Shown here piece after piece: positions 11,375-36,077 of a stretch of 40,963 nucleotides of DNA; position 1 is the first letter of the stretch; each line of letters opens with the position of its first letter. The stretch is taken from positions 1 to 40,963 of the forward strand of contig DASSZA010000247.1 in NCBI GenBank assembly GCA_035703005.1, read 5' to 3'. The notes beneath the pieces are model-generated. The model ran no database searches, was not told the DNA's origin, and saw only the letters and a program-made list of their open reading frames with translations. The position numbers were made by a program, and so were the translations under genes. The stretch comes from Candidatus Limnocylindrales bacterium (GTDB lineage Bacteria > Chloroflexota > Limnocylindria > Limnocylindrales > CSP1-4).

Positions 11375-11394
11375 GAACACCCCACGTTCGAACG
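11375..11394. repeat. 20-bp direct repeat, copy B (GAACACCCCACGTTCGAACG)
   Basis: Contains the 12-bp perfect palindrome ACGTTCGAACGT (11384-11395). Confidence 0.9.
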
Positions 11395-11458
11395 TCAGGC
11401 GCGAGCTGCCGAGCGGCGGCGGTAGCTGCCGACGCGGCGCTGACCGCCGGCGGCCGCC

Positions 11459-12334
11459 CTAGCCGCCGACAGCGAGCAGCAAAGCGCCCGCCACGATGAG
11501 GACTGACGCACCGACGCGGCGGATGGTGTCACCGCGATCGGCCGCCTCCCCGAGCCTGACCGAGCCCCATGCGGCCGCGAACACCGCCGCGGACTCGCGG
11601 AGCGGCGCGACGCCGGACAGCGGTGCGAGGCTGAGTGCCCACAGGATCAGGAGGTAGGCGATGAGCGTGAGCCAGCCACCGATGGCGGCGTAGCGGATCT
11701 GCTCGGGGCCGCCCGCGAGGATCTCCCCACGGACGACGAAGCGAACCCACAGGACGAGGCAGATCGCAGCCGTCACCCATAGGATCGCGGCGTAGGTCAG
11801 CGGATCGATCAGGCGGGTCCCGGCACGATCGATGGCGCTGTACGTCGCGATCGCGATCCCGGTCGCGAAGGCGAACATGACCGACGGGTCGAGGCCGTGA
11901 CCACGGACCGCGCGCCAGGGTCGCTGCAGGACCAGGAAGCCGACGAGCAGGAACGCGACGCCGATCGAGCCGGCGATCCCGAGGCGTTCGCCGAAGATCC
12001 CGACACCGATGACGACCGCGAGGAGTGGCGCCGTCCCGCGGGCGATCGGGTAGACGACCGACAGGTCGCCACGTCGATACGCGGCGGAAAGCAGGACGAA
12101 GTAGACCGCCTCGACGACGCCTGACAGCACGCCGAGCGCGACGCCTTCCACGGGGAGTGTCGGCTGGCCGTCCAGCCACCACGCGACGATGCCGACGGGC
12201 ACGATCCCCACGGACGCCGCGAGCATCCCGACCGTTGCCGTGCGGAGCGGGTCACCGGCCGTCTTGAGCCGGACGTTCCACGCGACGTGTAGACCGGCAC
12301 TGACCAGGACGATCGCGATGACGAAGGGGTCCAC
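11459..12334 (-). CDS. EamA/DMT-superfamily transporter
   Basis: About 10 hydrophobic segments. GTG start at 12334. Convergent with the first EamA gene. Confidence 0.8.
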   Translation of the reverse strand: MDPFVIAIVLVSAGLHVAWNVRLKTAGDPLRTATVGMLAASVGIVPVGIVAWWLDGQPTLPVEGVALGVLSGVVEAVYFVLLSAAYRRGDLSVVYPIARGTAPLLAVVIGVGIFGERLGIAGSIGVAFLLVGFLVLQRPWRAVRGHGLDPSVMFAFATGIAIATYSAIDRAGTRLIDPLTYAAILWVTAAICLVLWVRFVVRGEILAGGPEQIRYAAIGGWLTLIAYLLILWALSLAPLSGVAPLRESAAVFAAAWGSVRLGEAADRGDTIRRVGASVLIVAGALLLAVGG

Positions 12335-12394: not shown

Positions 12395-14092
12395 TCAACC
12401 GCGCAGATCGCGCCGTCGGATGCCCCACGCGCCGATCAGCACGCCGCCGACGGCCAGGACGACCGACGCCACGATCCCGACCGGATCCCACTGGCCGAGC
12501 ATCGTGAACCCGTAGTGCGACGTCAGCGCCAGCTCGTGGACGATGTCGGGCAGGTTCAGCGCCGGACCGATGACCCCGACGAACCACGTGACGATCGTGA
12601 AGATCGCTACGAACGGTCCGGCGTAGCTCGTGCCGAACACGCCGCCGACCGCGATGCCGATCCCGACGAGCGCGGCCGCGTAGAGCCCGAGCACGAGCGT
12701 CCCCGCGACCGGTGTCGCGATCTCGCTTCCGGCGATCGCCGCCCCGACGGCGATCCCGACCATCGTCATTACGGTGAAGACGACGACGCCGACGAACGCA
12801 GCGACCCCGCCGGAGGTTACCCAGCGAGTCCGCGACAGCGGCGTGGCGAGCAGGAACTCGAGCCGGCCGGAGGTCTCGTCCGAGGCCCAGACGGCAACGA
12901 GCGTGGCAGCCGCGAGCCCGGCGAGGATCATCCCGAACTCGACGAAGAGGAGCTGCAGGAAACCGCCGACCGATCGGATGTCGAAGCCTGGGAACACCTG
13001 GTTGAGGAGCGTCACGAACTCGGTCGCCTTGCCCAGCTCGTCGATGAACGACTTGCCGGAGCCGGCGATGGCCAGCCCGAACAACCCGATCCCAAGGCCC
13101 CAGGCCATCGATGACGGCAGGTTCTGGCCGATCCCTCGCCCGGTCGGGCCTTGGAGCCCGACGAGTGCGCGCGGCAGGCTCGGCGTCGGGATCGGCGACG
13201 TCGCGCCGATGTCCCGCCGTGCGAATGCCTCGACGCCGACGACGGAGAGCACGATGCCGACGACAGCCACCGGGACGAGCGTGGGCCAATCGAACTGCCC
13301 GGCGAGCGGGATGTGGTTCGACGTCCACCCGAACCAGGTCAGATTCGCAAGCGGTGCGATCGACGGGATCGCGGCCTGGTAGCCGTTGACGATGAACCCG
13401 CCGAACAGCACTGCTGCGGCCACACCAGCTGCCGACCCGCGGCCGACGAACGGCGCGAGAGCAAACGCCACCGAGCCGGCGGCGACTGAGATCAGGAACA
13501 TCCAGAGCGCGTAGCCGACTGCAGCCTCGACCGGGATCTCATCGCCCGGCAGTCCGTTGACCGACCGACCGACGATCAGCAACGCGACGAGGACCGCGAC
13601 GGCGACGATCGTCTGGCCGGTCAGGTGGGCGAACAGCTTCTCGAGCGCGATGCGCCGGCGGGCGGTGCCCGTCGCTGCCACGAACTCCATGCTCCCGCGG
13701 CGAGCTTCGGCCGCGAGCGTCGCCGACAGGGCGAGGATGGCCCAGAGACTCGTGATCTCCGGGAAGAACACGCCGTACTTGTACTGGAGGTATCCGCCAA
13801 GCGTGCCGACGTTGACGGCCTTGCCGGCGAGACCCGCGAGGATCGGTGGCACCGCGGCCACGACGGCCACGAGCTGCTGGCGCGACTCCGGGGTGTTGAA
13901 CTCTTGCACGATCGCGAAGCTGACGCCGATGAGCAGGAGGAACAACAGGGCGGAGATGACGATGACCGCTCGACGCGAGTCGCGCATCGTCTTGCCGTAG
14001 ATGCTCCCGAATCCGTAGACGCGCGACAGCAGCGACGGCCCGCTGATGGCCGGCGCGACTTGCGTCGGCCTGCGTTCGACTTCTGAGGTCAT
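12395..14092 (-). CDS. ABC-2 type transporter permease, double-length (565 aa)
   Basis: About 12 hydrophobic segments. Starts 1 nt after the stop of the upstream ATPase. Confidence 0.8.
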   Translation of the reverse strand: MTSEVERRPTQVAPAISGPSLLSRVYGFGSIYGKTMRDSRRAVIVISALLFLLLIGVSFAIVQEFNTPESRQQLVAVVAAVPPILAGLAGKAVNVGTLGGYLQYKYGVFFPEITSLWAILALSATLAAEARRGSMEFVAATGTARRRIALEKLFAHLTGQTIVAVAVLVALLIVGRSVNGLPGDEIPVEAAVGYALWMFLISVAAGSVAFALAPFVGRGSAAGVAAAVLFGGFIVNGYQAAIPSIAPLANLTWFGWTSNHIPLAGQFDWPTLVPVAVVGIVLSVVGVEAFARRDIGATSPIPTPSLPRALVGLQGPTGRGIGQNLPSSMAWGLGIGLFGLAIAGSGKSFIDELGKATEFVTLLNQVFPGFDIRSVGGFLQLLFVEFGMILAGLAAATLVAVWASDETSGRLEFLLATPLSRTRWVTSGGVAAFVGVVVFTVMTMVGIAVGAAIAGSEIATPVAGTLVLGLYAAALVGIGIAVGGVFGTSYAGPFVAIFTIVTWFVGVIGPALNLPDIVHELALTSHYGFTMLGQWDPVGIVASVVLAVGGVLIGAWGIRRRDLRG

Positions 14093-14093
14093 G

Positions 14094-14995
<902 letters not shown>

Positions 14996-14999
<4 letters not shown>

Positions 15000-15514
15000 T
15001 CCTTCCTGCCGGCCGCGCCGGCTTCCTTCCCGGCTCCGCCGGCTTCCCTGCCGGCCGCGCCGGCACGCTCGCGGAGGAAGCGGTCGATGACGGCCGGGAC
15101 CTCCCGCTCGACGAACGCGAAGACATCGCGGAGCTCCTCGATCCTCCGCTTCGACTCCGGTGGCCGATCGGCGATGGCTTCGAGTCCTCGCTCGGAAAGC
15201 GCGCGGAACTGGCTGTACATGCGGCCCGCATTCGCCAGGAACGAGTCGAGCGTCTCGGGCGGCGCGCTGAAGTACTCGCGACGATCGCCTCGTCGCGTGC
15301 TGCGCCGGATCATCCCGCTCGTCGCCAGGAGGCGAGCCGTGCCGCTGATCGCGCCGCGACTCGCGTGGAGCGCGTCGGCGATCTCGGCCGCCGTCTGCTC
15401 CTCTGGCTCGCAGATCAGCAGCCAGCCCCACATCCGTCCCGCCATCGGGGTCATCCCGTACGACGCCAGCATCTGGCCCATCTCCTCGACGAACCGGCTC
15501 TCGCCATCGGTCAT
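14996..15514 (-). CDS. GbsR/MarR-type winged-helix transcriptional regulator
   Basis: FVEEMGQMLASYGMTPMAGRMWGWLLI...AAEIADALHASRGAISGTARLLATSGMIRR resembles the GbsR family. The ATG at 15514 is preferred over the track TTG at 15550, which coincides with a -35-like TTGACT. Confidence 0.75.
14999..15064 (-). repeat. In-frame 21-bp x3 tandem repeat encoding AGAAGRE/AGGAGKE/AGAAGRKE at the regulator C-terminus
   Basis: Read directly from the DNA and from the protein tail. Confidence 0.85.
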
Positions 15515-19094: not shown

Positions 19095-20057
19095 TCAGCA
19101 GTCGTACGTCGCGAGCGGATAGACGCGCTCGCAGAACCGAACATGCACGTGGTCGTCGTGACCCGTGTACCAGCGCGTCAGCCCTTCGCGGATCAGCACC
19201 GGATCGTTGAAGTAGATGACCTTGATGTGGCCCGGTGCCGCCGCCCGGACCGCCTTGATGAACGCGCGCGTCGCGCTCCGGTCGTAGACGGCCATCCGGT
19301 AGTTGCCACCCCACTGACACTGGCGGTCGTCGCGGCGCATGATCCGGACGTCCACGTCCATCCCGCGCTCATGCGTGTCGTGGCCGGGCATGTCGCCCCC
19401 GTGCTCGAAGCTCACATCGCCGATCGCGACGGGCCCGAGACCCGCCTGGCCTACCGTCACAGCCGCGGCTCGCACAGCGCCGATCGCCGCACCCGTGCCC
19501 CAGTGCGCCGGACCGTTGCCGACCTCGTACCCGCACATCCATCGGCCGAAGACCGGCGATTCGAAGTGGCCGATGAGGTAGCGCCACGTAGCGGCATCCA
19601 CCACGCCGGTCCGTGTCAGCCCGGCATGGTGCTGGAACGAGCGGACCGCGGTCGCGGTCGCCCCGGCCAGCACGCCGTCGACCGTCAGCCCTGCCCGGCG
19701 CTTGTCGTTGAGCTGACGCTGGACGACCTTCACCGCCTCGCCGGTCGCACCAGGGTCGAGACGCATGATGAGGCGAGCCCACGTTCCGGCATCGACCATG
19801 CCCGTCCCCGTCATGCCCTGCGACATCTGGAAGGCCTTGACGGCGGCGATCGTCGGGCCATCGAAGACGGCCGAGATGTAGAGGCTCGTCGCCCCGCGAG
19901 CGCGAAGGAGGCCCTGGAGCGCACGGACATCGGACCCTCGGTCACCGGCGCTCTGGTGCGGGTAGATCGGCGCCGCGGCGCTCGCGACGCCAGTCCCGGC
20001 GACCGTCAGGACGCCGAGGGCAGCCGCGACCAGGAGCAGGCGAAGTCGGATGGGCAT
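19095..20057 (-). CDS. Secreted peptidoglycan-binding protein with a MepA-like (LAS/M74-type) murein endopeptidase domain
   Basis: Signal peptide MPIRLRLLLVAAALGVLTVAGTGVASA. Two PG_binding_1-like repeats (...AVKAFQMSQGMTGTGMVDAGTW, ...AVRSFQHHAGLTRTGVVDAATW). THERGMDVDV and GHDDHVHVRF match the MepA zinc motifs HQTGLDVDI and HDDHFHVRL. Confidence 0.8.
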   Translation of the reverse strand: MPIRLRLLLVAAALGVLTVAGTGVASAAAPIYPHQSAGDRGSDVRALQGLLRARGATSLYISAVFDGPTIAAVKAFQMSQGMTGTGMVDAGTWARLIMRLDPGATGEAVKVVQRQLNDKRRAGLTVDGVLAGATATAVRSFQHHAGLTRTGVVDAATWRYLIGHFESPVFGRWMCGYEVGNGPAHWGTGAAIGAVRAAAVTVGQAGLGPVAIGDVSFEHGGDMPGHDTHERGMDVDVRIMRRDDRQCQWGGNYRMAVYDRSATRAFIKAVRAAAPGHIKVIYFNDPVLIREGLTRWYTGHDDHVHVRFCERVYPLATYDC

Positions 20058-20064
20058 GACCGGG

Positions 20065-20070
20065 AGGCTA
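20065..20070 (-). promoter_or_regulatory. Candidate -10 box TAGCCT, 7 nt before ATG 20057 (leaderless-type)
   Basis: Minus strand reads TTGTAGCCTCCCGGTC-ATG. Confidence 0.4.
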
Positions 20071-20119
20071 CAAGGTCTGCGGCGCCGGCAGCACCACCCG
20101 ATGGGACTAGCCGGCAGCG

Positions 20120-20125
20120 TAGGCT
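20120..20125 (+). promoter_or_regulatory. Candidate -10 box TAGGCT, 6 nt before GTG 20132 (leaderless-type)
   Basis: Plus strand reads GCGTAGGCTGCCCGC-GTG. Confidence 0.4.
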
Positions 20126-20131
20126 GCCCGC

Positions 20132-20881
20132 GTGGACAGACTTTCCGGCGCGGAGGAGCTCCTCGATGGGCCACTCGACGACCGGCCTGCGCTGGTCGGC
20201 AACCTGCGCGACCTGGCCCGCGTCAATCGGCGTCTCGGCGGGATCGACCTCAGCGCGCGCGCGATCGAGGCCCTCGCACCCGGCGGGTCCTCGATCGAGG
20301 TCCTCGACGTCGGCACGGGTGGCGCGGACATCCCGCTCGCGCTGATCGAACGAGGCCGCGCACGGGGACGGCTGGTGCGGGTCACCGGCATCGACAGCAG
20401 ACCAGAGGTGCTGGAGGCCGCTGCGGTGGCCGATCGGCGGGTGACGGCGACCGGGGAACTGGCACTCCACGTGGCAGATGGACAGGCCCTCCCCTTCCCC
20501 GACGCGGCCTTCGAGATCGTCCACAGCTCCCTGGTCATCCACCACCTCGAACCCGACGCGGCTCGCGCGCTGCTCGCGGAGATGGCACGCGTCGCACGGC
20601 TCGGTGTCGTCGTCAATGACCTCGTCCGGGGACGCGCGGCGTGGGCCGGTGCCTGGGCGTTGTCGCATCTCGCGACCCGCAATCGCTTCACCCGCCGCGA
20701 CGCACCGCTTTCCGTGCGCCGCGCTTACTCCGTCGCGGAGCTCACGGCTCTGATGGCCGCGGCCGGGGTCCGCGTCGAGCGGCGGTTCGACGGTCCGTTC
20801 GGCCATCGCGTCGCGCTCGCCGGGTCCGCGAACGGGCACAGCACCGGGCACGGGAACGTCCGCGGGGACGCGCGCGGATGA
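20132..20881 (+). CDS. Class I SAM-dependent methyltransferase
   Basis: Motif I VLDVGTGGADIP; acidic loop GIDSRPE; FEIVHSSLVIHHL. Confidence 0.85.
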   Translation: MDRLSGAEELLDGPLDDRPALVGNLRDLARVNRRLGGIDLSARAIEALAPGGSSIEVLDVGTGGADIPLALIERGRARGRLVRVTGIDSRPEVLEAAAVADRRVTATGELALHVADGQALPFPDAAFEIVHSSLVIHHLEPDAARALLAEMARVARLGVVVNDLVRGRAAWAGAWALSHLATRNRFTRRDAPLSVRRAYSVAELTALMAAAGVRVERRFDGPFGHRVALAGSANGHSTGHGNVRGDARG

Positions 20882-22092
20882 TCGTGGACGACGTCGTCGA
20901 TGTCGCGATCGTCGGGGCCGGGCTCGCTGGCACGACGTTGGCTACGCGTCTCGCCCGGCGCGGCGTCGATGTCCTCGTCCTTGAACGATCGCCGGCATGG
21001 CACTGGCGAGCGGGTGGTGTCTTCGCGTCGCCGGCGGCCGTCGAGCAGCTTCGTCGAGTCGGGCTGTCCGACGCGACGATCCCGGCGCTCGCCGAGCCGA
21101 TCCCAGCGATGCGGCTCGAAACGCCGGCCGGAACGACCGTGCGGTTGACGTACGGCGCGGACACCGGCGGACCCATGGCCGTCGGCTTCGACCGCTCCGC
21201 GTTGGACCCGGAGCTCGAACGGCTGGCGATCGAGGCCGGAGCGATCGTCGAGCGCGGCGTCACGGTCCACACGGTGCACCTTGGAGCGCCGAACGTGCTC
21301 GATCTCGGTGATCACCAGGTCGCGGCGAGGATCGTCGTCGGCGCCGACGGGACGCATTCGGTGGTGGCGCGAGCCGCGGGGGTCGCACGTCCGCCGAGAC
21401 TGCCGCCGCGCGTAGGCCTGACGTGGCACGTCAACGATCCGCGGCCGCCGACGCACCCAGCCGCCGATGCGCGGATGGTCGTCGGACGCGACGGGTACGT
21501 CGGCCTCGCACGTGTCCCGGGCGGCCGGCTCAACATCGGCGTCGTGCTCGGGGAGTCGTGGCTCGCCGCCCTCGCCGACGACGGCGCCGCGGCCACGGCG
21601 GAACGCCTGCTCGAGATGATCCCCCGTCGGGATGACGACCCCGTCGATTGGGGGGCCGCGACCGTCTGCGACACCATCGCGGGTGCCTCGCCACTCGGCG
21701 TACGGGTGACGCGACGTGCGGGCCCCGGGTGGTTCCTGGTCGGCGACGCGTGCGGGTTCCTCGATCCGTTCACTGGCGAGGGCATCCATCGGGCGCTCGT
21801 CTCGACCGATCTCGCCGCGCGCGCGATCGCGGCGGCGCTCCCGCGTGATGGCGACGCGGCCCGTGCAGCCGATGCCTACGACCGTGCGATGACCCGACGA
21901 TTCGGCACGAAGGACGCCGTCTCGTTGCTCGTGCAGACGTTCCTGGCGCGCCCACGCCTCTTCGAGTACGCCGCGCGACGGCTCGCCGAACGCCCCGATG
22001 TCCGTGCGACGATGGGCCTCGTGATGGGTGACCTCCTACCTGCCTCGCGCGGCCTCGATCCGCGGTTCCTCGCGGCCCTGCTCGCACCGTGA
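20878..22092 (+). CDS. FAD-dependent oxidoreductase, geranylgeranyl-reductase-like
   Basis: Rossmann motif DVAIVGAGLAGTTLATRLARRG; VVGADGTHS; GDACGFLDPFTGEGI. ATGA overlap with the methyltransferase. Confidence 0.85.
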   Translation: MIVDDVVDVAIVGAGLAGTTLATRLARRGVDVLVLERSPAWHWRAGGVFASPAAVEQLRRVGLSDATIPALAEPIPAMRLETPAGTTVRLTYGADTGGPMAVGFDRSALDPELERLAIEAGAIVERGVTVHTVHLGAPNVLDLGDHQVAARIVVGADGTHSVVARAAGVARPPRLPPRVGLTWHVNDPRPPTHPAADARMVVGRDGYVGLARVPGGRLNIGVVLGESWLAALADDGAAATAERLLEMIPRRDDDPVDWGAATVCDTIAGASPLGVRVTRRAGPGWFLVGDACGFLDPFTGEGIHRALVSTDLAARAIAAALPRDGDAARAADAYDRAMTRRFGTKDAVSLLVQTFLARPRLFEYAARRLAERPDVRATMGLVMGDLLPASRGLDPRFLAALLAP

Positions 22093-22541
22093 GCGGCCGC
22101 GGTCGGGCGCGACCCGGCGACAGGGTCCGGGTCGCGGCGTACGCGATCGTCCACGACGAGGAGGAGCGCGTGCTGCTCTGCCACATCCACCCATCCGTGG
22201 GCGTGGGTGATGTCTGGACCCTCCCCGGCGGCGGCCTCGAGTTCGGCGAATCGCCTCGCGGGGCCGTGCTGCGCGAGCTCGAGGAGGAGACCGGCCTCGT
22301 CGGCGATGTCGAACGGCTCGTGGAGGTCGACGACCGCCTCTTCACCAGCCGGAACGGCGCCGGCCGGATGCATGCGATCCGGATCGTCTACGACGTCAAC
22401 ATCATCGGCGGGTCGCTGCGCGACGAGCTGGACGGCTCCACGGATACGTGTCGCTGGGTGGCGCCCGAGGAGGCGCTCACGATGCGCCTCGGCGAACTGG
22501 CACGGCACGCGATCGAACGAGTGGCGCCGGTCGATGCGTGA
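22089..22541 (+). CDS. NUDIX hydrolase
   Basis: Nudix box GGGLEFGESPRGAVLRELEEETGL. GTGA overlap with the flavoprotein stop. Confidence 0.85.
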   Translation: MSGRGRARPGDRVRVAAYAIVHDEEERVLLCHIHPSVGVGDVWTLPGGGLEFGESPRGAVLRELEEETGLVGDVERLVEVDDRLFTSRNGAGRMHAIRIVYDVNIIGGSLRDELDGSTDTCRWVAPEEALTMRLGELARHAIERVAPVDA

Positions 22542-23751
22542 CGGCGCCCTCGCGCCGGCGCTCGTCCTGTCGAGCCACCTCGCCGCGATGGGCACGATCC
22601 GGTGTCTCGGCGTCGCCGGGATACCCGTCGTCAACGTCCATTACGCCGACAGCGACTTCGCCCACGTCTCGCGGCACGTCCGCCATCGGATCCGGTCACC
22701 GCATCCCGAGCACGACGAGGACGCATTCGTCGGGACGTTGATCGAGGCGGCGTCGCGCTTCGGGCGATGTCTGATCGTCCCTGCCAATGACGCGACCCTT
22801 GGCGTCGTCTCGCGGCGGAAGGCCGAGTTGGAGCCGCACCACGTCGTCGCCGCGGACGACTGGTCGATCGTCGAGCGGGTCATCGACAAGCGACACACGT
22901 ACGAGCTCGCCCATCGGATCGGCGTCCCGGCCCCGCGAACGGACACGCCGACGACGCGTGCCGACGCCGAACGGATCGCCGAGACGTTCCTGTTCCCGTG
23001 CCTCGTGAAGCCGCGCGTGAGCCATCGCTACGCCGAGCTGTTCCGCGCGAAGCTCGCCCGCGTCCACGACGCGGCAGAACTGCTGCACGAATACGACCGT
23101 GCGGCCGCCGAGGACATCGAGGTGATGATCCAGGAGTACATCCCGGGCGACGACCGCCACAGCTATAACTACGACGCGTACCGGGCGCACGGTCGGTCGA
23201 TCGAATACACCGCACAGAAGCTGCGCCTCGCGCCGCCCGAGTTCGGATTGCCGCGTGTGGTCGTCAGTCGGCCTGCGCCGGACGTCATCGACCCGGCACG
23301 CCAGCTCCTCGACGCCCTCGGCTACACCGGGTACTCGTGCACCGAGTTCAAGGTGGACCCGCGCGACGGTGTGCCGAAGCTGATGGAGGTCAACGCGCGC
23401 GTGAACCGGTCTGTCCTGCATCCGCTCGCGAGCGGTATCAACTTCCCGGCGATCCTCTACCGCGACCTGATGCTCGGCGAGGCTCCCGAGGCCCCTGGGC
23501 TGCTCCCCGGACGCGCCTACTGGATCGATCTTGCGGGCGATATCCGCTACAGCGTCCGCGGCTGGCGATCGGAAGGTCTGACGTGGCGCGACTACCTGCG
23601 GCCCTATGCCGGCAGAAAGGTGTTCGCCGTGGGCGACGGCTTCGATGTGATGCCGTTCCTGAAGCGCTCGTTCGGGACGGTCGCGACGCGCTGGCGTCGC
23701 ATCCGTGGCGGCGTCAGCCGGGGCGACGGCGGGAGCGACGTCGCGGCCTGA
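22534..23751 (+). CDS. ATP-grasp carboxylate-amine ligase-like enzyme (paralogue 1)
   Basis: FPCLVKPR, MIQEYIPG, LMEVNARVNRS. 8-nt overlap with the NUDIX gene. Start is Met110 of the track ORF. Confidence 0.8.
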   Translation: MRDGALAPALVLSSHLAAMGTIRCLGVAGIPVVNVHYADSDFAHVSRHVRHRIRSPHPEHDEDAFVGTLIEAASRFGRCLIVPANDATLGVVSRRKAELEPHHVVAADDWSIVERVIDKRHTYELAHRIGVPAPRTDTPTTRADAERIAETFLFPCLVKPRVSHRYAELFRAKLARVHDAAELLHEYDRAAAEDIEVMIQEYIPGDDRHSYNYDAYRAHGRSIEYTAQKLRLAPPEFGLPRVVVSRPAPDVIDPARQLLDALGYTGYSCTEFKVDPRDGVPKLMEVNARVNRSVLHPLASGINFPAILYRDLMLGEAPEAPGLLPGRAYWIDLAGDIRYSVRGWRSEGLTWRDYLRPYAGRKVFAVGDGFDVMPFLKRSFGTVATRWRRIRGGVSRGDGGSDVAA

Positions 23752-23785
23752 TCCGGGGCCGAGCGCCACCGAGTCGGCGGCAGCC

Positions 23786-24991
23786 TCAGACGGCCTTGTC
23801 GCGCGCGAACGTCCGGCGACCCTGCTGGCTCCCGTTCCGCGTCCCCCGGCGGAAGAGCCGTGTCGCACTCGTGAGGAGCGGCCACGGATCGCTGGCCGAG
23901 AAGATCGCCAGCGCCGTGTCGGGATGGGGCACGAGTCCGCGCAGCCCGTCGCGGCGCGGTCCGCGGAGGAGCATCCGTCCGATCGCTCGGAGGTCGCCCT
24001 CTTCGTGCTGGTAGTGGACGCCGACCCGGTAGGAATCCGGCACGACCGGCTGACGGCCGAGCAGCAGGTTCACCCAGATCCCGGGCAGGTTCATCCCTGC
24101 TCGCGTCGCATGGCCGATCGACGTGTAGAAGCGCGGGTTCACGTCGATGATCGCGTAGTCATCCGCACGCTCGAACAGGTCGACCTGGAAGAGCCCGCGC
24201 CAGTCCATCGAGCGGAGCAGCGCCGCGACGCGATCCACGAGACCCGTGTCGAGTGGGATCGTGACGGCGTGGCTGATCGACCCGCACGGTGCGGGCCAGA
24301 CACGATCGGCGCGTGACTGCACCGCGCACACGATCTCGCCGTCCCAGAACACCCCGGCCAGTGAGATCAGTGGGTCGTGTACGAATGGCTGGACGAGGCC
24401 GCGGGTCCCGGGCAGCTCGGCGAGGGCGTGCTCGAGCTCGTGGAACGTCCTGGCGACGACCGTCCCGCGGTGGCGGACGACGCCGTCCTCCTCACGGATC
24501 TCGGAGCGTCCCGGCTTGACGACCACAGGGAACGGGAACGGCAGTCGCGCCGGGATGGTGTCGAGCGTCATGTCGCAGGTCGGGAGCGTCGGGAGGCCGG
24601 CGCCGGCCGCGAATCCCTGGAGCCGACCCTTGTCCGTCACGTCCATCAGCGTCGCCAGGGGCGGTACGCCGAGCACGACATCCGGCGGGAGGCGATCCGA
24701 CCGGCGCACGAGTGTCTCCATCTCGAACTCAGTCCCCGGCACGATGGCAGCGGCGGCGAGGCGCGCGGCGGCCGCGGCAAGCTCATCGACGAACGTATCT
24801 GGGGCTTCCCACGGGCTCGGCACCTCGATGACCCCGGCGCTCGCCCACGACCGAGCCGCGTACGTGCCGCGCTCGTGGACGGCGACCCACGGCGAATACC
24901 CGGCGTCGCGCAGCGCGCGCACCGCACCAAGCACGCTCACGTGCTCGCCACCGGTCAGGATGACGACGTCACCGGGACGCCGGCCATTCAT
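23786..24991 (-). CDS. ATP-grasp carboxylate-amine ligase-like enzyme (paralogue 2)
   Basis: FPVVVKPG, LVQPFV, YAIIDVNPRFYTS. Same overall layout as paralogue 1. Start is Met30 of the track ORF; no SD or -10 box seen, so the start is uncertain. Confidence 0.7.
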   Translation of the reverse strand: MNGRRPGDVVILTGGEHVSVLGAVRALRDAGYSPWVAVHERGTYAARSWASAGVIEVPSPWEAPDTFVDELAAAAARLAAAAIVPGTEFEMETLVRRSDRLPPDVVLGVPPLATLMDVTDKGRLQGFAAGAGLPTLPTCDMTLDTIPARLPFPFPVVVKPGRSEIREEDGVVRHRGTVVARTFHELEHALAELPGTRGLVQPFVHDPLISLAGVFWDGEIVCAVQSRADRVWPAPCGSISHAVTIPLDTGLVDRVAALLRSMDWRGLFQVDLFERADDYAIIDVNPRFYTSIGHATRAGMNLPGIWVNLLLGRQPVVPDSYRVGVHYQHEEGDLRAIGRMLLRGPRRDGLRGLVPHPDTALAIFSASDPWPLLTSATRLFRRGTRNGSQQGRRTFARDKAV

Positions 24992-25033
24992 TGCAGGGGA
25001 AAGGGGCACGGGTCTACGGTGAGGGTCGGACAC

Positions 25034-25059
25034 TAACGGCCGGTAACCACGTCGATAAC
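25034..25059. promoter_or_regulatory. Three phased TAAC motifs in the divergent ATP-grasp / SRPBCC-KS intergenic region
   Basis: TAAC at 25034, 25044 and 25056 (spacing 10 and 12 nt) in an otherwise GC-rich 85-bp spacer. Confidence 0.3.
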
Positions 25060-25076
25060 GAGTCGTTGCGGGGCCC

Positions 25077-25580
25077 ATGCATACCGAGATCGCGATCGAT
25101 ATCGACGCTTCGCCAGAGCTGGTGTTCGCGCTCGCCCACGACGTCGAGCGGTGGTCCGACTTGCTGCCGCACTACGTTCGATCCCGAGCCCGCGACCATG
25201 ACGCCTGGGGCCGACCGTTGGTCGATTTCATCGCGCGACGGCCACTCGTGGCCACGCTCGGCCTCGGGCTCCCTGTCGCGTGGCGGTCCCGGACGTGGAA
25301 CGAGCCCGAGACGCTTCGGCTGCGCTTCGAGCACGTCGCCGGCGCGACGCGCGGCATGTCGGTGGTTTGGGACATCGACACGCGCGGAGGCGGGGACGCA
25401 TGTCGCGTGACGATCAGGCACGAGTTCTCCCCTCGGGTACCAGGATTCGCGCGCTTCGTCGACCGCTTCTTCACCCGGCCGATCGCCGGGCGGACGCTGG
25501 CGACGTTCAAGACGCTGGCGGAAGCGGTCGATTCGGTCGACGGATCCGACCCGACCTCGCCGACGCATCGTACGGCATGA
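25077..25580 (+). CDS. SRPBCC (polyketide cyclase/dehydrase-like) family protein
   Basis: MHTEIAIDIDASPELVFALAHDVERWSDLLPHY..., the typical SRPBCC N-terminus. Confidence 0.75.
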   Translation: MHTEIAIDIDASPELVFALAHDVERWSDLLPHYVRSRARDHDAWGRPLVDFIARRPLVATLGLGLPVAWRSRTWNEPETLRLRFEHVAGATRGMSVVWDIDTRGGGDACRVTIRHEFSPRVPGFARFVDRFFTRPIAGRTLATFKTLAEAVDSVDGSDPTSPTHRTA

Positions 25581-26836
25581 CACATCGTCGGATCTGGATC
25601 ACGGGGCTCGGTCTCGTGACGCCCATCGGCACCGGTGTCGACGCCTTCCGAGCCGGGCTGCGCGCAGCGACGTCGCCGGTGAAGCGGATCGATCGGTTCG
25701 ATCCCTCGCCGTTCCGCAGTCAGGTCGCGGCACAGGTCGACGACTTCGACGCGCTCGCGTGGATGCCGCCCAAGACCGCGCGTCAACTCGATCGGTTCAG
25801 CCAGTTCGCGATGGTTGCCGGCCAGCTCGCCCTCGACGACGCGCGCTTGAGACCCGGCGAGGACGGCGCCGCGGACCCCGACCGGATCGGGATCTATCTC
25901 GGCTCGGCGTTGGGTGGCATCGCCTTCGCCGAGGAGCAGCACGAGCGTTACCTCGACAAGGGGATCCGGCAGGTGGCCCCGACCCTTGCACTCGCCGTCT
26001 TCGGCGGTGCCGCGCCGGCGAACCTGGGCATCGCGCTCGACGTGCGCGGGCCGATCCTCTCGACAGCGAACTCATGTGCGTCGGGCGGCGTCGCGCTCGG
26101 CGAGGCGCTGGGCGACCTGCGTGATGGGCGGATCGACGCGGCGATCGCCGGCGGCTGTGAGGTGCCGTTGTCGCCACTTGCGTTCGGCGCGTTCGACATC
26201 ATCAGGGCCCTCGGCGCGGGCCACAACGACGATCCCGGTCACGCCGCACGGCCGTTCGACGCCGGACGTGACGGGTTCGTCATGGGCGAGGGCGCGGCAT
26301 TGCTGGTCCTCGAGGAGGCGGAAGCCGCGGAACGTCGAGGCGCCACGCCGTACGCCGAGATCCTCGGATACGGCGCGACGTCCGATGCCCATCACATGGT
26401 CCAGCCCCGAGCCGACGGCCGCGAGGCCGGCCGTGCCGCAGCGATCGCCCTCGACGATGGCGAGGTCGATCCCGGCGAGATCGACTACGTCAACGCGCAC
26501 GCGTCATCGACGCCGATCGGCGATGTCGCGGAGGCGCGCGCGCTGACGATCGCGCTCGGCGAGCGCGCCGCGACGGTGCCGGTCAGTGGGACCAAGGCGC
26601 TGTACGGACATCCCCTCGGGGCCTCAGGAGCGATCGAGGCGGCGATCTGTGCGCTCGCGATCCGCGACGGGTGGGCGCCATCGTCCGTCAATCTCGTGGA
26701 GTCCGAACCGGCGCTCGCCGATCTCCTCCCAGGCCTGCTTCGCTCCGGACGGGACGGGACCTACCGACGGGTGCTGAGCACCTCGTTCGGCTTCGGCGGA
26801 CTGAACGCCGCACTGGTGTTCGGCGGGGTCGACTGA
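25577..26836 (+). CDS. Beta-ketoacyl synthase, FabF/KAS-II type
   Basis: Cys-His-His triad contexts: STANSCASG, SDAHHMV, VNAHASSTPIGD; C-terminal SFGFGGLNAALVF. ATGA overlap with the SRPBCC stop. Confidence 0.9.
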   Translation: MTHRRIWITGLGLVTPIGTGVDAFRAGLRAATSPVKRIDRFDPSPFRSQVAAQVDDFDALAWMPPKTARQLDRFSQFAMVAGQLALDDARLRPGEDGAADPDRIGIYLGSALGGIAFAEEQHERYLDKGIRQVAPTLALAVFGGAAPANLGIALDVRGPILSTANSCASGGVALGEALGDLRDGRIDAAIAGGCEVPLSPLAFGAFDIIRALGAGHNDDPGHAARPFDAGRDGFVMGEGAALLVLEEAEAAERRGATPYAEILGYGATSDAHHMVQPRADGREAGRAAAIALDDGEVDPGEIDYVNAHASSTPIGDVAEARALTIALGERAATVPVSGTKALYGHPLGASGAIEAAICALAIRDGWAPSSVNLVESEPALADLLPGLLRSGRDGTYRRVLSTSFGFGGLNAALVFGGVD

Positions 26837-28140
26837 AGGACCGCGGCGGCATCGACGTCGCCGATGCCCTTCGCGACTTCGCCCTGCTCGCGCGCCCGGA
26901 TCCGGCGATACCAAACGAACGCTCCGAGGCCGCTGGCGAGCGATAGCACACCTCCGACCGCGATCGCTTCGAGGATCCCGACTTTTGAAGCGAGCGCGCC
27001 CATAAGAAGGCCGCCGATCGGCATCGACGCCGAGAAGACCGTCGTGTAGACGCTCATCACGCGGCCGCGGAGCCCGTCGGGGACCGCCAGCTGGATCGTC
27101 GCATTGGCCGTGGCGGCCATCGTGATGCCGCCCGCCCCGATCGGGACCATCAGCAGCAGCGAGACCGGGAACGAGGTCGACATCGCCAGCAGGATCGAGG
27201 CGACGCCGAGCAGGATCGCCCCGCCGACGATGCGACTCGCCCGCGGTCGGCCCGACAGGACGAGGCCGACAGCCGCCCCGAGCGCCCCGATCCCGCTGGC
27301 CGCCATCAGGAAGCCGTAGCCGGATGCGTCGCTCCCGAGCGCCTGGGCGAGCGGCGGGATCACGACCTGGAAGTTCATCCCGAACGTGGCGACGAGGCCG
27401 ACCGTGGTGACCGCGAGCAGCACGATCGGTGTGTGACGAACGAACGCGAGACCCTCTCTCAGGTTCTCGACGACCGCGCCGGCAGAGCGAGGCGCCGGGA
27501 CGAGCCGCGCGAGGTGCAGTTCGTCGTCGCGCATGAGCGCCAGGCCGACGATGACGGCGAGGAAGCTCAACGCGTTGATGGCGAACGCGGGGGCGATCCC
27601 GAACGCGCCGATGGTCAGGCCGGCGACCGCGGGTCCGACGACGCGGGCGCCGTTGAACATGGCCGAGTTGATGGCGACGGCGTTGCCGATGTCGCGCGGC
27701 CCGACCATCTCGATCGCGAAGGCCTGGCGGACGGGCATGTCGACGGCGTTCGCGCAGCCGAGCAGCACGGCGAGCACGAGGATCATCCAGACCTCTACGA
27801 CGTTCGTCGCGGTCAGCACCGTGAGGATCGCGGCCAGGACCATCATGGTGGCCTGGACCGCGATGAGCGTCTGGCGCTTGGGCAGGACGTCCGCGAGGAT
27901 CCCGGCGAACAGGCCGAGGATCATGACCGGCAGGAACTGCGCGCTCGCGACGACACCGAGCCAGAACGGGTCGCCGGTCAGGGTGAGGACGAGCCAGCCC
28001 TGGGCGACCTGCTGCATCCAGGTGCCGACGAGCGAGATCGCCTGCCCGCCGAAGAACAATCGGTAGTTGCGATGGCGGAACGGCGCGGCCGCCTTGCCCC
28101 AGGCCACGCGGCTCGACCCTGGGAGGGTGACGCCGGTCAT
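26761..28140 (-). CDS. MFS transporter (EntS/MFS_3-like)
   Basis: FRHRNYRLFFGGQAISLVGTWMQQVAQGWLVL, the typical N-terminus; 12 hydrophobic segments. The 3' end overlaps the KS gene by 76 nt. Confidence 0.85.
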   Translation of the reverse strand: MTGVTLPGSSRVAWGKAAAPFRHRNYRLFFGGQAISLVGTWMQQVAQGWLVLTLTGDPFWLGVVASAQFLPVMILGLFAGILADVLPKRQTLIAVQATMMVLAAILTVLTATNVVEVWMILVLAVLLGCANAVDMPVRQAFAIEMVGPRDIGNAVAINSAMFNGARVVGPAVAGLTIGAFGIAPAFAINALSFLAVIVGLALMRDDELHLARLVPAPRSAGAVVENLREGLAFVRHTPIVLLAVTTVGLVATFGMNFQVVIPPLAQALGSDASGYGFLMAASGIGALGAAVGLVLSGRPRASRIVGGAILLGVASILLAMSTSFPVSLLLMVPIGAGGITMAATANATIQLAVPDGLRGRVMSVYTTVFSASMPIGGLLMGALASKVGILEAIAVGGVLSLASGLGAFVWYRRIRAREQGEVAKGIGDVDAAAVLQSTPPNTSAAFSPPKPNEVLSTRR

Positions 28141-28643
28141 CGGACGTGCCCCCGGCGCTCAGGATGGGGATCCGGACCGCCCTCGAGCTCGGCGAGGTGC
28201 TCGTCGAGATGCCGTCGGCGTTCCTTCGCCGCATCGATCATCTCGGCGAGGCGTGCGGCCTTCGCCTCAAGGGTCTCGATCTGGCGCTCGACGCGGTCTC
28301 GCGCGTCATTGATGAGTGCGCGTCGCTCGGTCGGGTCGTGCGACGAGCGGAACCGTTCGCGATTGCGCTCTCGAGCCGCTTCGTCTTCGAGCAGCTGGCC
28401 GATCTGGGCGAGTGAGAACCCGGCCTCGTCGCGGAGCTCCTTGATCGTGCGGAGGCGCTCGAGATCCGACGCGTCGTAGAGGCGGTACGCACCCTCGGAG
28501 CGGGCGGCGGGTTCGAGGAGGCCGACCTCCTGGTAATAGCGGATCGACCGCGGTGTCAGGCCGGTCTCGGCCGCGACTTCCTGGATCTTGAGGAGGGCTG
28601 TGCCTGGGGTCGAGGTCGTCGTCGTGGGAGTCGTTGCGGGCAT
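28137..28643 (-). CDS. MerR-family transcriptional regulator
   Basis: HTH LKIQEVAAETGLTPRSIRYYQEVGLL followed by a coiled-coil. ATGA overlap with the MFS start. Confidence 0.9.
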   Translation of the reverse strand: MPATTPTTTTSTPGTALLKIQEVAAETGLTPRSIRYYQEVGLLEPAARSEGAYRLYDASDLERLRTIKELRDEAGFSLAQIGQLLEDEAARERNRERFRSSHDPTERRALINDARDRVERQIETLEAKAARLAEMIDAAKERRRHLDEHLAELEGGPDPHPERRGHVR

Positions 28644-33276: not shown

Positions 33277-34599
33277 TCAGCTGGTACGACGCGCCGCCGC
33301 GATGAACTGGCGCAGCCCGGGTCGTTGGCCGTACAACAGGACACCCGTCGCGTAGACCCGTACGGTGACGACGGCGACCCCCGCGATGGTCACGAGCAGG
33401 ATCACGACAGACAGGACCACCTCGAGCGGATGCACGTCGCTGACCATGAGCCGCGCGAGCATCGCGAACGGGCTGAACGGCGGCACGAGCGAGGCGATAC
33501 GTGCGAGCGTGCCCGTCCCACCGCCGAGCAGCACGAGCAGCGCTGACAGGTAGCCGCCCATCGCGACGAGGCTCAGCGGTAGTGACAAGGTCTGGAGGTC
33601 GTCCGGTCGGCTCACGAACGACCCGACGGCCGCGTAGATGAGCGCGAACAGCGCGAAGCCGAGCAGGAAGAACAGGCCGTAAGCGGCGATCAGTCCGATC
33701 GTCAGGCCCCCGGTCGGCAGACCGGCCTGGCCGGAGCCGAGGATCGCACCCGCGATCTGCTCCTGGAACGCGAGGACGAGCATGACCGGGACCGCGATCG
33801 CGATGTACTGGGTCAGTCCCGCGCCACCGATCCCGACCACCTTGCCGACCAGCAGCTGCCGCGGTGAGGCCGCGCTGATCATCAGCTCCATGACCCGGCT
33901 GCTCTTCTCGGTCGCCACGCCGGTCGCGACCCACATCCCGTAGATCAGGATCGTGATGAACATCAGGATGATGAACACGGTGCCGAGGAAGCCGCGACTC
34001 GCGACCACGACCGCGTCGACCTGACGACCGCCTTCCGTCGGCGCGACCAGTGACTCGGTCGTGAACGTCGGCGTTCGGAACGCGCCCAGCTCCGAGCCCT
34101 TCGGCAGCGACGCCGTCCAGTCGAGGATGCCGAGCGACAACGCCGCGAACCCGGCGAGCTGGCTGCGGACCCCGTCCGCGGGCCCGAGGGTCCGGTACGT
34201 CACGGCGAGCTGCCGATCCGGCTGGCGGACGACCTCGATGATCGCGTCGATCCGGCCGTCGGCGAGCGCCTGGAGCGCGACATTCCGGTCCAGCTCCCGG
34301 GCGATCTGGTACGGCGCCTTCCAGCGCCTGCGGTCGACGCCGGGCGGCGGCAGATTCATGACGCCTTCGGCCGTCGCCATGATGCCCTGCGCGAGGCGAT
34401 CCTCCTCCGCGACGACACGGATCTGGCGGACGCTCGCCTGGTCGAAGTAGCGCAGGACGATCGGCGTCATCGCGACGCCCACGGCGAGCGCCATCAGGAC
34501 GATCGTCGAGATGCGGTAGAGCTTGCTTCGGACGCGCTCGCTGTACTCGCGACGCGCGACGGTTCCGGCATTCGGGAACAGCGGGTCGTGGCGCGCCAT
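33277..34599 (-). CDS. ABC-2 type transporter permease (NatB-like)
   Basis: N-terminal TM segment, a large extracytoplasmic loop, then 5 C-terminal TM segments. 1-nt overlap with the upstream ATPase. Confidence 0.8.
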   Translation of the reverse strand: MARHDPLFPNAGTVARREYSERVRSKLYRISTIVLMALAVGVAMTPIVLRYFDQASVRQIRVVAEEDRLAQGIMATAEGVMNLPPPGVDRRRWKAPYQIARELDRNVALQALADGRIDAIIEVVRQPDRQLAVTYRTLGPADGVRSQLAGFAALSLGILDWTASLPKGSELGAFRTPTFTTESLVAPTEGGRQVDAVVVASRGFLGTVFIILMFITILIYGMWVATGVATEKSSRVMELMISAASPRQLLVGKVVGIGGAGLTQYIAIAVPVMLVLAFQEQIAGAILGSGQAGLPTGGLTIGLIAAYGLFFLLGFALFALIYAAVGSFVSRPDDLQTLSLPLSLVAMGGYLSALLVLLGGGTGTLARIASLVPPFSPFAMLARLMVSDVHPLEVVLSVVILLVTIAGVAVVTVRVYATGVLLYGQRPGLRQFIAAARRTS

Positions 34600-35543
34600 C
34601 AGGCCGCGTCCTCCTGGTCGACCGGTTCCTCGATCACGTCGGACGGCCGCCCGACGAGCTCGACGAAGATCGCCTCGAGCGACGGTTCCGCCACCTCGAA
34701 TCGACTGACGAGTGCGCCACGCTCGAGGGTGGCAGCGAGGATGTCACGCGGCTCGACGCCGGCCATCAGCTCGATCTCGGCGAACCCAGCACCGGGCCGA
34801 ACGGCGGCCACGCCGTCGATCGACGCGAGCCACGTCGGTGCGATCTCGCCTTCGATGCCGAGTCGCACGGTCCGCGCGCGCGACGATCGCTTCAGTTCAG
34901 GGACCGTACCGGCGGCGACGAGCCGGCCATGATCGACGATCACGAGTGACTCGCAGAGGGCCTCGGCGACCTCCATCTGGTGGGTGGAGAAGACGATCGT
35001 CCGCCCCGCGTCGCGCAGCTCGATGAAGGCATCGCGAAGCAAGGCAAGGTTCACTGGATCAAGCCCGGTGAACGGCTCGTCCATGAGCAGGACATCCGGG
35101 GCGTGGAGGATCGCCGCGATGAACTGGACCTTCTGCTGATTGCCCTTGCTGAGCTCCTCGGCCCGGCGTTCCGCGAGGTCCGGGATGCGGAAGCGGTCCA
35201 GCCAACCGAGCGCGTTCGCGCGCGCGTCCGCCGGCCGCTCTCCATACAGGGAAGCGAAGTAGACCAGCTGGTCGATGACGGTGAGTCGGGGATAGAGGCC
35301 GCGCTCTTCCGGGAGATAGCCGAACGTGCGCCGCGGCAGATCGGTCGAGGGGACGCCGCCCCAGCGGACTTCACCCTCGTCGGCGCGCAGGATCCCGAGA
35401 CAGATCCGCATCGTCGTCGTCTTTCCGGCGCCGTTCGCGCCCAGGAAGCCGAAGATCCTGCCGTCGGGCACGCTGAACGCAAGCTGATCGAGCGCCACGG
35501 TCCGCCCGAACCGCTTCGTGACGCGGTCGATCTCGAGGGTCAT
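34599..35543 (-). CDS. ABC transporter ATP-binding protein (NatA-like)
   Basis: MTLEIDRVTKRFG; Walker A GANGAGKTTT; signature SKGNQQKV; Walker B LLMDEPF. Start is Met134 of the track ORF. Confidence 0.9.
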   Translation of the reverse strand: MTLEIDRVTKRFGRTVALDQLAFSVPDGRIFGFLGANGAGKTTTMRICLGILRADEGEVRWGGVPSTDLPRRTFGYLPEERGLYPRLTVIDQLVYFASLYGERPADARANALGWLDRFRIPDLAERRAEELSKGNQQKVQFIAAILHAPDVLLMDEPFTGLDPVNLALLRDAFIELRDAGRTIVFSTHQMEVAEALCESLVIVDHGRLVAAGTVPELKRSSRARTVRLGIEGEIAPTWLASIDGVAAVRPGAGFAEIELMAGVEPRDILAATLERGALVSRFEVAEPSLEAIFVELVGRPSDVIEEPVDQEDAA

Positions 35544-35551
35544 CGCGCCCG

Positions 35552-35557
35552 AGGATA
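35552..35557 (-). promoter_or_regulatory. Candidate -10 box TATCCT, 8 nt before ATG 35543, flanked by the CCGAGG/CCTCGG inverted repeat (35549-35565)
   Basis: Minus strand reads GGTCTATCCTCGGGCGCG-ATG. Confidence 0.4.
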
Positions 35558-35588
35558 GACCTCGGCCCTCGGTGCCGCCGCTGGGTCG

Positions 35589-36077
35589 ATGGTCATGGTG
35601 CGGTCCGGTGCGGTCCAGGCGCCAGACTGGCGCACGCCGCGCAAGTGCGACAATCGAGATGTGACGACCGATACGACCGGAGGCGCAGCAACGACTACGC
35701 CGACCCGGATCCACGCTGACCGGGGAGCCGGCACCCTCGAGATCGACTGGGCCGATGGGCACAACACGGTCTATGGATTCGAGGCCCTGCGCTGGCTGTG
35801 CCCGTGCGCGTATTGCCGAGGCGAGGCCGGGATGCCGGGCTGGCTCGACAGCGCACCGACACTCAGCCCGCAGCAGATCCAACTGACCGACCTGCACCTG
35901 GTCGGCAATTACGCGGTCTCGCCGCATTGGGCGGACGGCCACAAGACGGGCTACTACCCGTTCCGACTCCTGCGCGACCGGTGCCCGTGCCCAGAATGCA
36001 CCGCGCGACGCGCGCGAGAGAGCGGCGACACGATCGGCCGTCCGTCACCGGCCGGGACGCACGAGGAGCATCGATGA
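35589..36077 (+). CDS. DUF971-family protein (gamma-butyrobetaine-hydroxylase N-terminal-like)
   Basis: Two half-repeats: LEIDWADGHNTVYGFEALRWLCPCAYC and YAVSPHWADGHKTGYYPFRLLRDRCPCPEC. Alternative start GTG 35661, preceded by GACAAT plus 6 nt. Confidence 0.7.
   Translation: MVMVRSGAVQAPDWRTPRKCDNRDVTTDTTGGAATTTPTRIHADRGAGTLEIDWADGHNTVYGFEALRWLCPCAYCRGEAGMPGWLDSAPTLSPQQIQLTDLHLVGNYAVSPHWADGHKTGYYPFRLLRDRCPCPECTARRARESGDTIGRPSPAGTHEEHR

Follow-up and report, generated by a model that had tools for sequence, protein, structure and literature searches.

The locus described here raises the question of whether seven tightly packed genes, coding for a methyltransferase, a flavoprotein, a NUDIX hydrolase, two ATP-grasp proteins, an SRPBCC protein, and a FabF-like ketosynthase (KS), make up a single pathway, and what their products might do. 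The genes span positions 20132 to 26836 of a 40,963-nucleotide stretch of contig DASSZA010000247.1 of a Candidatus Limnocylindrales bacterium, and we refer to this whole stretch of DNA as the window. A first-pass annotation had treated the seven genes as one unit and had suggested an amide-decorated product. Once related genomes were compared, this plausible seven-gene cluster resolved into two parts, and the locus is very probably a composite of an old and widespread operon (methyltransferase, flavoprotein, in some cases NUDIX, SRPBCC, and KS) and a recent, clade-specific insertion of the ATP-grasp pair. The explanation that we favor overall combines this composite structure with a route to a tailored phenolic polyketide lipid that is independent of type III polyketide synthases (PKSs), and we regard it as having about an even chance of being correct.

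The coordinates and overlaps of the seven genes were confirmed from the open reading frames (ORFs) and by direct reading of the sequence, and Pfam and NCBIfam profile searches bear out the domain calls:

20132-20881, plus strand: methyltransferase (Methyltransf_25, 58.9 bits; NCBIfam NF004851, 144 bits)
20878-22092, plus strand: FAD-binding flavoprotein (FAD_binding_3, 77.6 bits; GG-red-SF, 110.3 bits)
22089-22541, plus strand: NUDIX hydrolase (NUDIX, 71 bits)
22534-23751, plus strand: ATP-grasp protein 1, AG1 (CPSase_L_D2 and ATPgrasp_Ter, both weak; NCBIfam also weak)
23786-25078, minus strand: ATP-grasp protein 2, AG2 (ATPgrasp_Ter, 33.3 bits; start codon uncertain, at 25078 or further downstream)
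25077-25580, plus strand: SRPBCC protein (Polyketide_cyc2, 47 bits)
25577-26836, plus strand: FabF-like KS (ketoacyl-synt N and C domains)

As read from the sequence, the methyltransferase and flavoprotein genes share an ATGA (20878-20881), the flavoprotein and NUDIX genes a GTGA (22089-22092), and the SRPBCC and KS genes a second ATGA (25577-25580). The NUDIX and AG1 genes overlap by 8 nucleotides (ATGCGTGA, 22534-22541), and AG1 and AG2 are convergent with a gap of 34 nucleotides between them (23752-23785).

The genomes closest to the window are Chloroflexota metagenome-assembled genomes (MAGs) of the class Limnocylindria, whose genomes are small, with means of 2.39 Mb and 68.9% G+C (PMC10608941); the window itself has 70% G+C. 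Regions around AG1 or KS homologues were fetched as numbered loci (L001 onward) and every window protein was scored against each; the operon matrix comes from tblastn over 80 KS-anchored loci, and absences from the neighborhood cover ∼85 loci of up to 21 kb each. In nearly all of the 80 loci, the methyltransferase, flavoprotein, SRPBCC, and KS genes are contiguous and on one strand, usually joined by overlapping stops and starts across phyla, and the methyltransferase is found in ∼70 of them. The core operon is present in ∼40 Limnocylindria species, with KS identities of 68 to 97%, and in ∼40 loci of Gemmatimonadota, Armatimonadota, Thermomicrobiales, and unclassified bacteria, with KS identities of 51 to 57%. 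The most closely related loci are of little help in this regard, as L001 and L002 match the window in gene order all the way from ALDH to DeoC, well outside the seven genes, so that synteny at this closeness is uninformative on function. L014 and L026 have wholly different surroundings and share only the methyltransferase, flavoprotein, SRPBCC, and KS genes with the other loci. We regard the operon as a conserved property of whole lineages, retained as part of the core although the genomes have a mean size of only ∼2.4 Mb, and not as a sporadic secondary-metabolite cluster. The first-pass annotation had proposed co-occurrence across related genomes as a check on the unity of the locus, and five of the genes do co-occur across phyla, with the ATP-grasp pair falling outside of this pattern. 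It had also stated that the combination matches no named pathway, and our literature searches likewise yielded nothing relevant and no description of this operon or gene combination.

Roughly half of the Limnocylindria operon loci carry the NUDIX gene, which is an accessory of the operon and has no fixed position: most have it between the flavoprotein and SRPBCC genes, in L005 it follows the ATP-grasp pair, and in L040 it comes downstream of the KS gene. The last of these, from a long-read MAG, has its KS gene split across two frames (9716-11350), in what looks like an assembly frameshift, and an unannotated 169-amino-acid ORF with no NCBIfam match (11370-11879) lies between its KS and NUDIX genes. 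A different accessory is found in the Gemmatimonadota, where a Flavin_Reduct gene (PF01613, E value of 6e-43) is located between the flavoprotein and methyltransferase genes in 30 loci (e.g., L061, 8360-8845); it is always present in the Gemmatimonadota version of the operon and absent from the Limnocylindria versions.

The ATP-grasp pair behaves otherwise. Only four loci, the window, L001, L002, and L005, combine AG1 and AG2 with the operon; they group together in a neighbor-joining tree of concatenated operon proteins, with a sister locus (L009) that lacks the pair. More than 35 further operon-bearing Limnocylindria loci have neither gene, nor do any of the loci from other phyla. In the related MAG MFD02242.bin.2.102, a convergent AG1/AG2 pair is on contig 3 with unrelated flanks (L003) and the operon is on contig 14 (L040). 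No meaningful direct or inverted repeats flank the insertion (22000-25600). The pair is thus an insertion in the clade of the window and not part of the ancestral operon.

For the core operon we propose a phenolic-polyketide chemistry, each step of which we infer and whose chances we place somewhat below even. The FabF-like KS would take acyl- and malonyl-thioesters, bound to acyl carrier protein (ACP), from the fatty-acid pool and carry out repeated condensation without reduction, and the aromatase/cyclase-like SRPBCC protein would fold and aromatize the poly-beta-keto chain to a resorcinol-type ring. The HidB-like flavoprotein would then hydroxylate the ring, served in Gemmatimonadota by the dedicated flavin reductase, and the HidA-like methyltransferase would methylate the product, giving a hierridin-, alkylresorcinol-, or polyketide-quinone-like lipid. 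The SRPBCC protein and KS would stand where hidABC-type operons have a type III PKS, with an exporter of the major facilitator superfamily (MFS) and a MerR regulator attached in some lineages.

The tailoring half of this scheme draws on relatives of the methyltransferase and flavoprotein. Searched by tblastn against annotated plasmids, the methyltransferase had 22 matches at ∼30% identity. Of the three regions inspected, that of Paludisphaera has the order methyltransferase, FAD oxidoreductase, and type III PKS, and that of Deinococcus has a type III PKS-like gene, methyltransferase, and FAD oxidoreductase. The third, on Sphingobium yanoikuyae plasmid pKN1 (L088, 3456-7775), codes for an ACP, a KS, a type III PKS, a methyltransferase, and an FAD oxidoreductase. 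We note that the Sphingobium set joins a FabF-like KS and an ACP to a type III PKS cassette, and that its KS is 36% identical to that of the window. The window methyltransferase is 32 to 34% identical, over nearly its full length, to the type III PKS-linked methyltransferases of these regions, and the flavoprotein is 33% identical over 376 amino acids to the Paludisphaera type III PKS-linked oxidoreductase, with the same NCBIfam match pattern. The NF004851 score of the window methyltransferase lies between those of the type III PKS-linked Sphingobium enzyme (133 bits) and its Paludisphaera (232 bits) and Deinococcus (309 bits) counterparts, and the Gemmatimonadota operon methyltransferase also matches this family. 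Similar tblastn searches of the flavoprotein and SRPBCC protein against annotated plasmids gave no match, and that of the KS gave only generic FabFs and PKSs at ∼42% identity. The hidABC genes underlie hierridin and alkylresorcinol biosynthesis in cyanobacteria and Planctomycetota and are arranged as hidA>hidB>hidC or hidC>hidA>hidB (PMC10896814; PMC8086630). By sequence, the window methyltransferase appears to be HidA-like, the comparison being with type III PKS-linked methyltransferases and not with HidA itself, and together with the flavoprotein it would form a methyltransferase/oxidoreductase pair of the hidABC type. The kinship of this pair to type III PKS operons, already suggested in the first-pass annotation, therefore stands at these identities, although its actinobacterial framing does not, as the lineage is Chloroflexota.

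The flavoprotein is probably a HidB-like ring hydroxylase. It scores 110.3 bits against TIGR02032 (GG-red-SF), under the cutoff of 158.8, and a profile of 62 family members searched against the PDB ranks FADH2-dependent phenol and pyrrole halogenases highest, with CmlS (2e-53) followed by ChlB4, Bmp2, CndH, and PltA, and then finds the geranylgeranyl reductase (GGR) 3oz2 (9e-46); the fold is that shared by GGRs and flavin-dependent halogenases. A role as a flavin-dependent halogenase was considered and rejected: in the alignment with CmlS, the WxWxIP motif reads Y-x-G-x-A-P, and the Lys that we presume to be catalytic in halogenases, from our own reading of the alignments, aligns with Pro. A Flavin_Reduct gene beside the flavoprotein gene fits an enzyme using free reduced flavin, as two-component hydroxylases do. 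We also note that residue ∼46, which we take to be the position of the conserved Cys of GGRs, is Cys in most family members ('RWxACGVF') and Gly in the window ('WRAGGVF').

The SRPBCC protein appears closest to the aromatase/cyclases of type II PKSs, both by profile and by predicted fold. A profile of 70 sequences matches BexL (8e-16), WhiE ORFVI (1e-11), TcmN (5e-9), and ZhuI (4e-6) in the PDB, and far more weakly the Coq10-like protein CC1736 (1.6e-3). An AlphaFold model built from database homologues at 65 to 96% identity (pLDDT 88.5) has ZhuI as its top Foldseek match in the PDB (TM-score of 0.76), along with BexL, WhiE, and TcmN. Tyr33 aligns with the Tyr of the WhiE 'SEY' motif, the Tyr equivalent to TcmN Y35 is kept, and W69, H86, H115, and E149 are invariant, the three polar residues across phyla.

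The alternative that survives best, itself improbable, is that the operon builds no aromatic polyketide but acts on an isoprenoid quinone or other lipid, tailoring or handling it, and that the KS has a side role, with the SRPBCC protein a Coq10/RatA-like binder, the methyltransferase UbiE/MenG-like, and the flavoprotein either a GGR/MenJ-like reductase or a UbiH-like hydroxylase. The JGI name of the SRPBCC protein ('RatA') and the GGR match of the flavoprotein profile are as expected on this account, as are the matches of the flavoprotein to GG-red-SF, MenJ, and Ubi-OHases and the weak match of the methyltransferase to UbiE/MenG, but these family scores all fall far under their cutoffs. A Coq10/RatA assignment is rejected by the SRPBCC profile and predicted fold, with the profile favoring aromatase/cyclases over CC1736 by 12 orders of magnitude. 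Moreover, the nearest annotated relatives of the methyltransferase-flavoprotein pair adjoin type III PKS genes, and the strict coupling of the SRPBCC and KS genes would be left unexplained.

Quite unlikely too is that all seven genes act in one pathway, with the ATP-grasp proteins adding amines or amino acids to a polyketide or fatty-acyl product that is methylated. In the clade of the window the pair does lie inside the operon, where it has persisted at either of two sites, following NUDIX in the window and preceding it in L005, and AG1 is coupled to NUDIX through the 8-nucleotide overlap. Against this are the confinement of the pair to a small clade, its separation from the operon in the related MAG, and the conservation of the ALDH-DeoC flanks in the same clade, which deprives collinearity of much functional meaning. 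The relatives of AG1 also point elsewhere. Judging from its sequence, AG1 would be a COG3919 ATP-grasp carboxylate-amine ligase ('D-aspartate ligase-like'); its 583 homologues have cross-phylum identities of 45 to 51%, and many carry the JGI names 'D-aspartate ligase' or 'predicted ATP-grasp carboligase'. Four homologues from other phyla, within this identity range, are all in polysaccharide clusters, which include FemAB-like, Wzz/Wzy, flippase, glycosyltransferase, DegT, and WecG genes; a second ATP-grasp gene is often present as well. AG2, also an ATP-grasp protein, is divergent and has no sequence relative in the PDB. The most likely role of the pair would be to ligate amino acids to a glycan or peptide of the cell envelope, presumably also the role of its relatives in polysaccharide clusters, and the pair is probably outside the pathway of the operon. 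Support for an amide-decorated product is thus lost, since the ATP-grasp genes are clade confined, on another contig in the related MAG, and related to genes of polysaccharide clusters.

In its long form, AG2 begins with an ATG at 25078 on the minus strand, which overlaps head to head with the SRPBCC ATG (25077) in CATGCAT (25076-25079); there would then be no room for an intergenic promoter. An alternative start at Met30 corresponds to Ile in L001. Either the AG2 and SRPBCC transcripts are leaderless, with promoters inside the neighboring gene, or AG2 starts elsewhere.

The composite reading with its phenolic-lipid route requires that the KS be something other than the housekeeping enzyme of type II fatty acid synthesis (FAS-II), and the alternative that it is simply the elongating FabF, with unrelated housekeeping or accessory neighbors and no dedicated pathway, must be weighed. 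The KS has the catalytic residues Cys167, His308, and His345, and the Cys, His, His, Lys, gating Phe, and most ACP-docking residues are kept in all 75 KS family members, as judged with an Escherichia coli FabF reference and 21 acpP-linked FabFs from fetched loci. Its best PDB matches are FabFs (Thermus 1j3n, 319 bits, versus 271 bits for actinorhodin KS-alpha), it is more strongly conserved than the other core genes (89% identity, versus 79% for the methyltransferase, 73% for the flavoprotein, and 70% for the SRPBCC protein), and a Gemmatimonadota orthologue passes the FabF equivalog cutoff, all of which a housekeeping FabF could share. The window KS itself, however, scores 421.6 bits against TIGR03150 (fabF), below the equivalog cutoff of 493.75. 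Operon KSs are monophyletic in a neighbor-joining tree, and the window KS is 51 to 57% identical to those of other phyla versus 36 to 41% to acpP-linked FabFs; Limnocylindria operon KSs have a median identity of 40% to acpP-linked FabFs, which are 53% identical among themselves. Ten diagnostic substitutions are fixed in the operon KSs, including A162S and T305S beside the active site, and in a 1.84-billion-protein representative library the operon-type KS clusters are at 51 to 55% identity and all else at or below 46%.

Gene neighborhoods separate the two groups as well. No acpP is near an operon KS in ∼85 loci, whereas it is directly upstream of fabF in 76 of 80 canonical FabF loci, and the overlap of SRPBCC stop and KS start recurs across phyla. 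At the level of the phylum, Gemmatimonadota also possess an acpP-fabF locus apart from the operon (27 of 29 loci), none of these loci being tied to an operon-bearing MAG. For Limnocylindria, acpP-fabF loci from many phyla were retrieved and none came from an operon-bearing MAG; within the loci that the search covered, this lack of a second FabF is what a housekeeping role would predict. Taken together, we think it very unlikely that the KS is the FAS-II FabF, and it is better described as a distinct, operon-linked FabF-like clade that, going by sequence, is a candidate for the chain-building enzyme of the proposed route.

Other KSs with additional domains were encountered in these searches. 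P0411 (L094, 1382-3031, from Chloroflexota MAG HyVt-206) is a 550-amino-acid FabF-like KS fused to a C-terminal NUDIX domain, which we dismiss as a functional link between the two activities because its NUDIX domain resembles that of the window only at the Nudix box, making this a weak lead. P0252, P0263, P0270, and P0273 are FabF-like KSs (∼41 to 43% identical to the window KS) with N-terminal PilZ or PocR-GGDEF domains, which suggests that some ketosynthases may be tied to cyclic-di-GMP signaling in other organisms.

That the operon instead makes a modified fatty acid (e.g., methyl-branched, hydroxy, or methoxy), with the KS performing one elongation, the SRPBCC protein acting as a dehydratase or isomerase, the methyltransferase methylating, and the flavoprotein reducing or hydroxylating the chain, would suit the ACP-docking residues of the FabF-like KS, the GGR-like character of the flavoprotein, and the lack of a polyketide carrier protein or chain-length factor, but it is highly improbable: the usual ketoreductases and enoyl reductases are missing, the methyltransferase is outside the cyclopropane/mycolic-acid synthase family, and an aromatic product is indicated both by the homology of the methyltransferase-flavoprotein pair to tailoring genes of type III PKSs and by the affinity of the SRPBCC protein to aromatase/cyclases.

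Several observations weigh against our preferred explanation of a composite locus with a type III PKS-independent phenolic-lipid route. Within 10 kb of the operon, ∼85 loci yielded no dedicated ACP, no chain-length factor, no thioesterase, and no type III PKS, although short divergent ACPs may escape tblastn. In the window, tblastn and Pfam between them bear out the absence of an ACP, a second KS, a thioesterase, an acyltransferase, and a type III PKS, as the first-pass annotation had reported. More specifically, tblastn with one ACP and three type III PKS probes found neither, the window has no second KS and no flavin reductase, and by Pfam scans its other large ORFs include no chain-length factor, thioesterase, or acyltransferase and have unrelated functions. 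The type III PKS search was limited to the loci, and a copy elsewhere in the genomes is possible. No case is known to us in which a FabF-type homodimer builds an aromatic polyketide on a borrowed ACP. The position of the catalytic Arg69 of TcmN is not conserved in the SRPBCC protein, the flavoprotein could equally be a reductase, with GGR scoring nearly as high as halogenases, and the Gemmatimonadota operon KS of L061 scores 509.9 bits against the FabF equivalog cutoff of 493.75. The two positions of the ATP-grasp pair inside the operon could mean selection for linkage. Finally, the literature searches turned up neither a product of the operon nor any account of it.

The operon is bordered in the window by three further genes, all of which had been noted in the first-pass annotation and are corroborated by Pfam:

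26761-28140, minus strand: MFS_3 exporter, EntS-like (MFS_3, 214 bits)
28137-28643, minus strand: MerR regulator, upstream of and overlapping the MFS gene (MerR_1, 77.8 bits)
19095-20174, minus strand: secreted peptidoglycan-binding endopeptidase (PG_binding_1, 92 bits; Peptidase_M74, 30.7 bits)

The MFS_3 gene is convergent with the KS gene and their 3' ends overlap by 76 nucleotides (26761-26836), a tail-to-tail arrangement also seen in 13 Limnocylindria loci (including L005, L009, and L012) and, with MFS identities of 32 to 34%, in L052 (KS 52% and MFS 32% identical to the window proteins) and Armatimonadota locus L079. MerR co-occurs with the MFS gene in Limnocylindria loci. These patterns hint that the MFS_3 protein may export the product in some lineages. 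The endopeptidase is beside the operon in only some Limnocylindria loci and is a neighbor outside the conserved unit; it probably starts at the signal peptide, near 20060, and the divergent spacer would then be ∼70 bp. A scan for sigma-70 promoters and terminators gave none above the shuffled expectation, and Rfam and tRNA scans of the whole window gave no matches.

Elsewhere the window is unusually rich in exporters. Three ABC-2 type transporter pairs (ATPase plus permease) are within its 41 kb (8371-10136, 12395-15431, and 33277-35942), two of the three with DrrA-like C-terminal domains, and there are also two EamA and two MFS transporters. A Ppk1 polyphosphate kinase (36880-39060) is followed by a CYTH-CHAD protein (in ORF 38751-40742), a typical polyphosphate-metabolism pair.

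It is possible, if on balance doubtful, that Limnocylindria and Gemmatimonadota, which are abundant and mostly uncultured in soil and freshwater, make a methylated and hydroxylated phenolic lipid or quinone without a type III PKS. Such a route would amount, in a suggestion that we offer as tentatively, to a minimal 'type II-like' alkylresorcinol synthase, in which a FabF-derived KS draws on the fatty-acid ACP pool and works with a stand-alone aromatase/cyclase. If true, phenolic lipids would have a new enzymatic route of synthesis, with a KS and a cyclase in place of a type III PKS, and current genome-mining rules would be expected to miss the operon for lack of a chain-length factor, an ACP, and a type III PKS. 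It would also predict for soils and lakes a previously unrecognized class of compounds, whether membrane lipids, redox carriers, or biomarkers, and possibly an abundant one since the operon is conserved across Limnocylindria and Gemmatimonadota.

Among known systems, the inserted pair is best compared with the COG3919 ligases. AG1 is 45 to 51% identical to members encoded beside FemAB-like, DegT, WecG, and Wzy genes; in contrast, the window pair stands alone and convergent, with no adjoining glycan genes, and AG2 is much more divergent. The operon KS resembles the FabF of FAS-II in fold, catalytic residues, gating Phe, and ACP-docking residues, but it belongs to a separate clade with substitutions near the active site and is not encoded beside acpP. 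With type II PKSs (ZhuI of R1128, TcmN, WhiE ORFVI, and BexL), the operon shares the pairing of a Cys-His-His KS with an aromatase/cyclase-like SRPBCC protein and the use of a flavin enzyme and a methyltransferase for tailoring; it differs in having a single KS in place of a KS-alpha/chain-length-factor heterodimer and no dedicated ACP, and its KS is nearer to FabF than to the actinorhodin KS-alpha. The closest parallel for the tailoring genes is the hidABC operons, to which the srsABC genes of Streptomyces and the mycobacterial polyketide-quinone clusters are related. As in hidABC operons, the methyltransferase gene precedes the flavoprotein gene, with overlapping stop and start codons (ATGA in the window), the methyltransferase belongs to NF004851, and the flavoprotein is 33% identical to a planctomycetal type III PKS-linked enzyme. 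Unlike them, neither the window nor the ∼85 loci have a type III PKS, an SRPBCC protein and a FabF-like KS being present instead, with a flavin reductase added in Gemmatimonadota and NUDIX often in Limnocylindria. The novelty lies in the combination: tailoring genes of the kind found in type III PKS alkylresorcinol operons, attached to a core that is different and type II-like.

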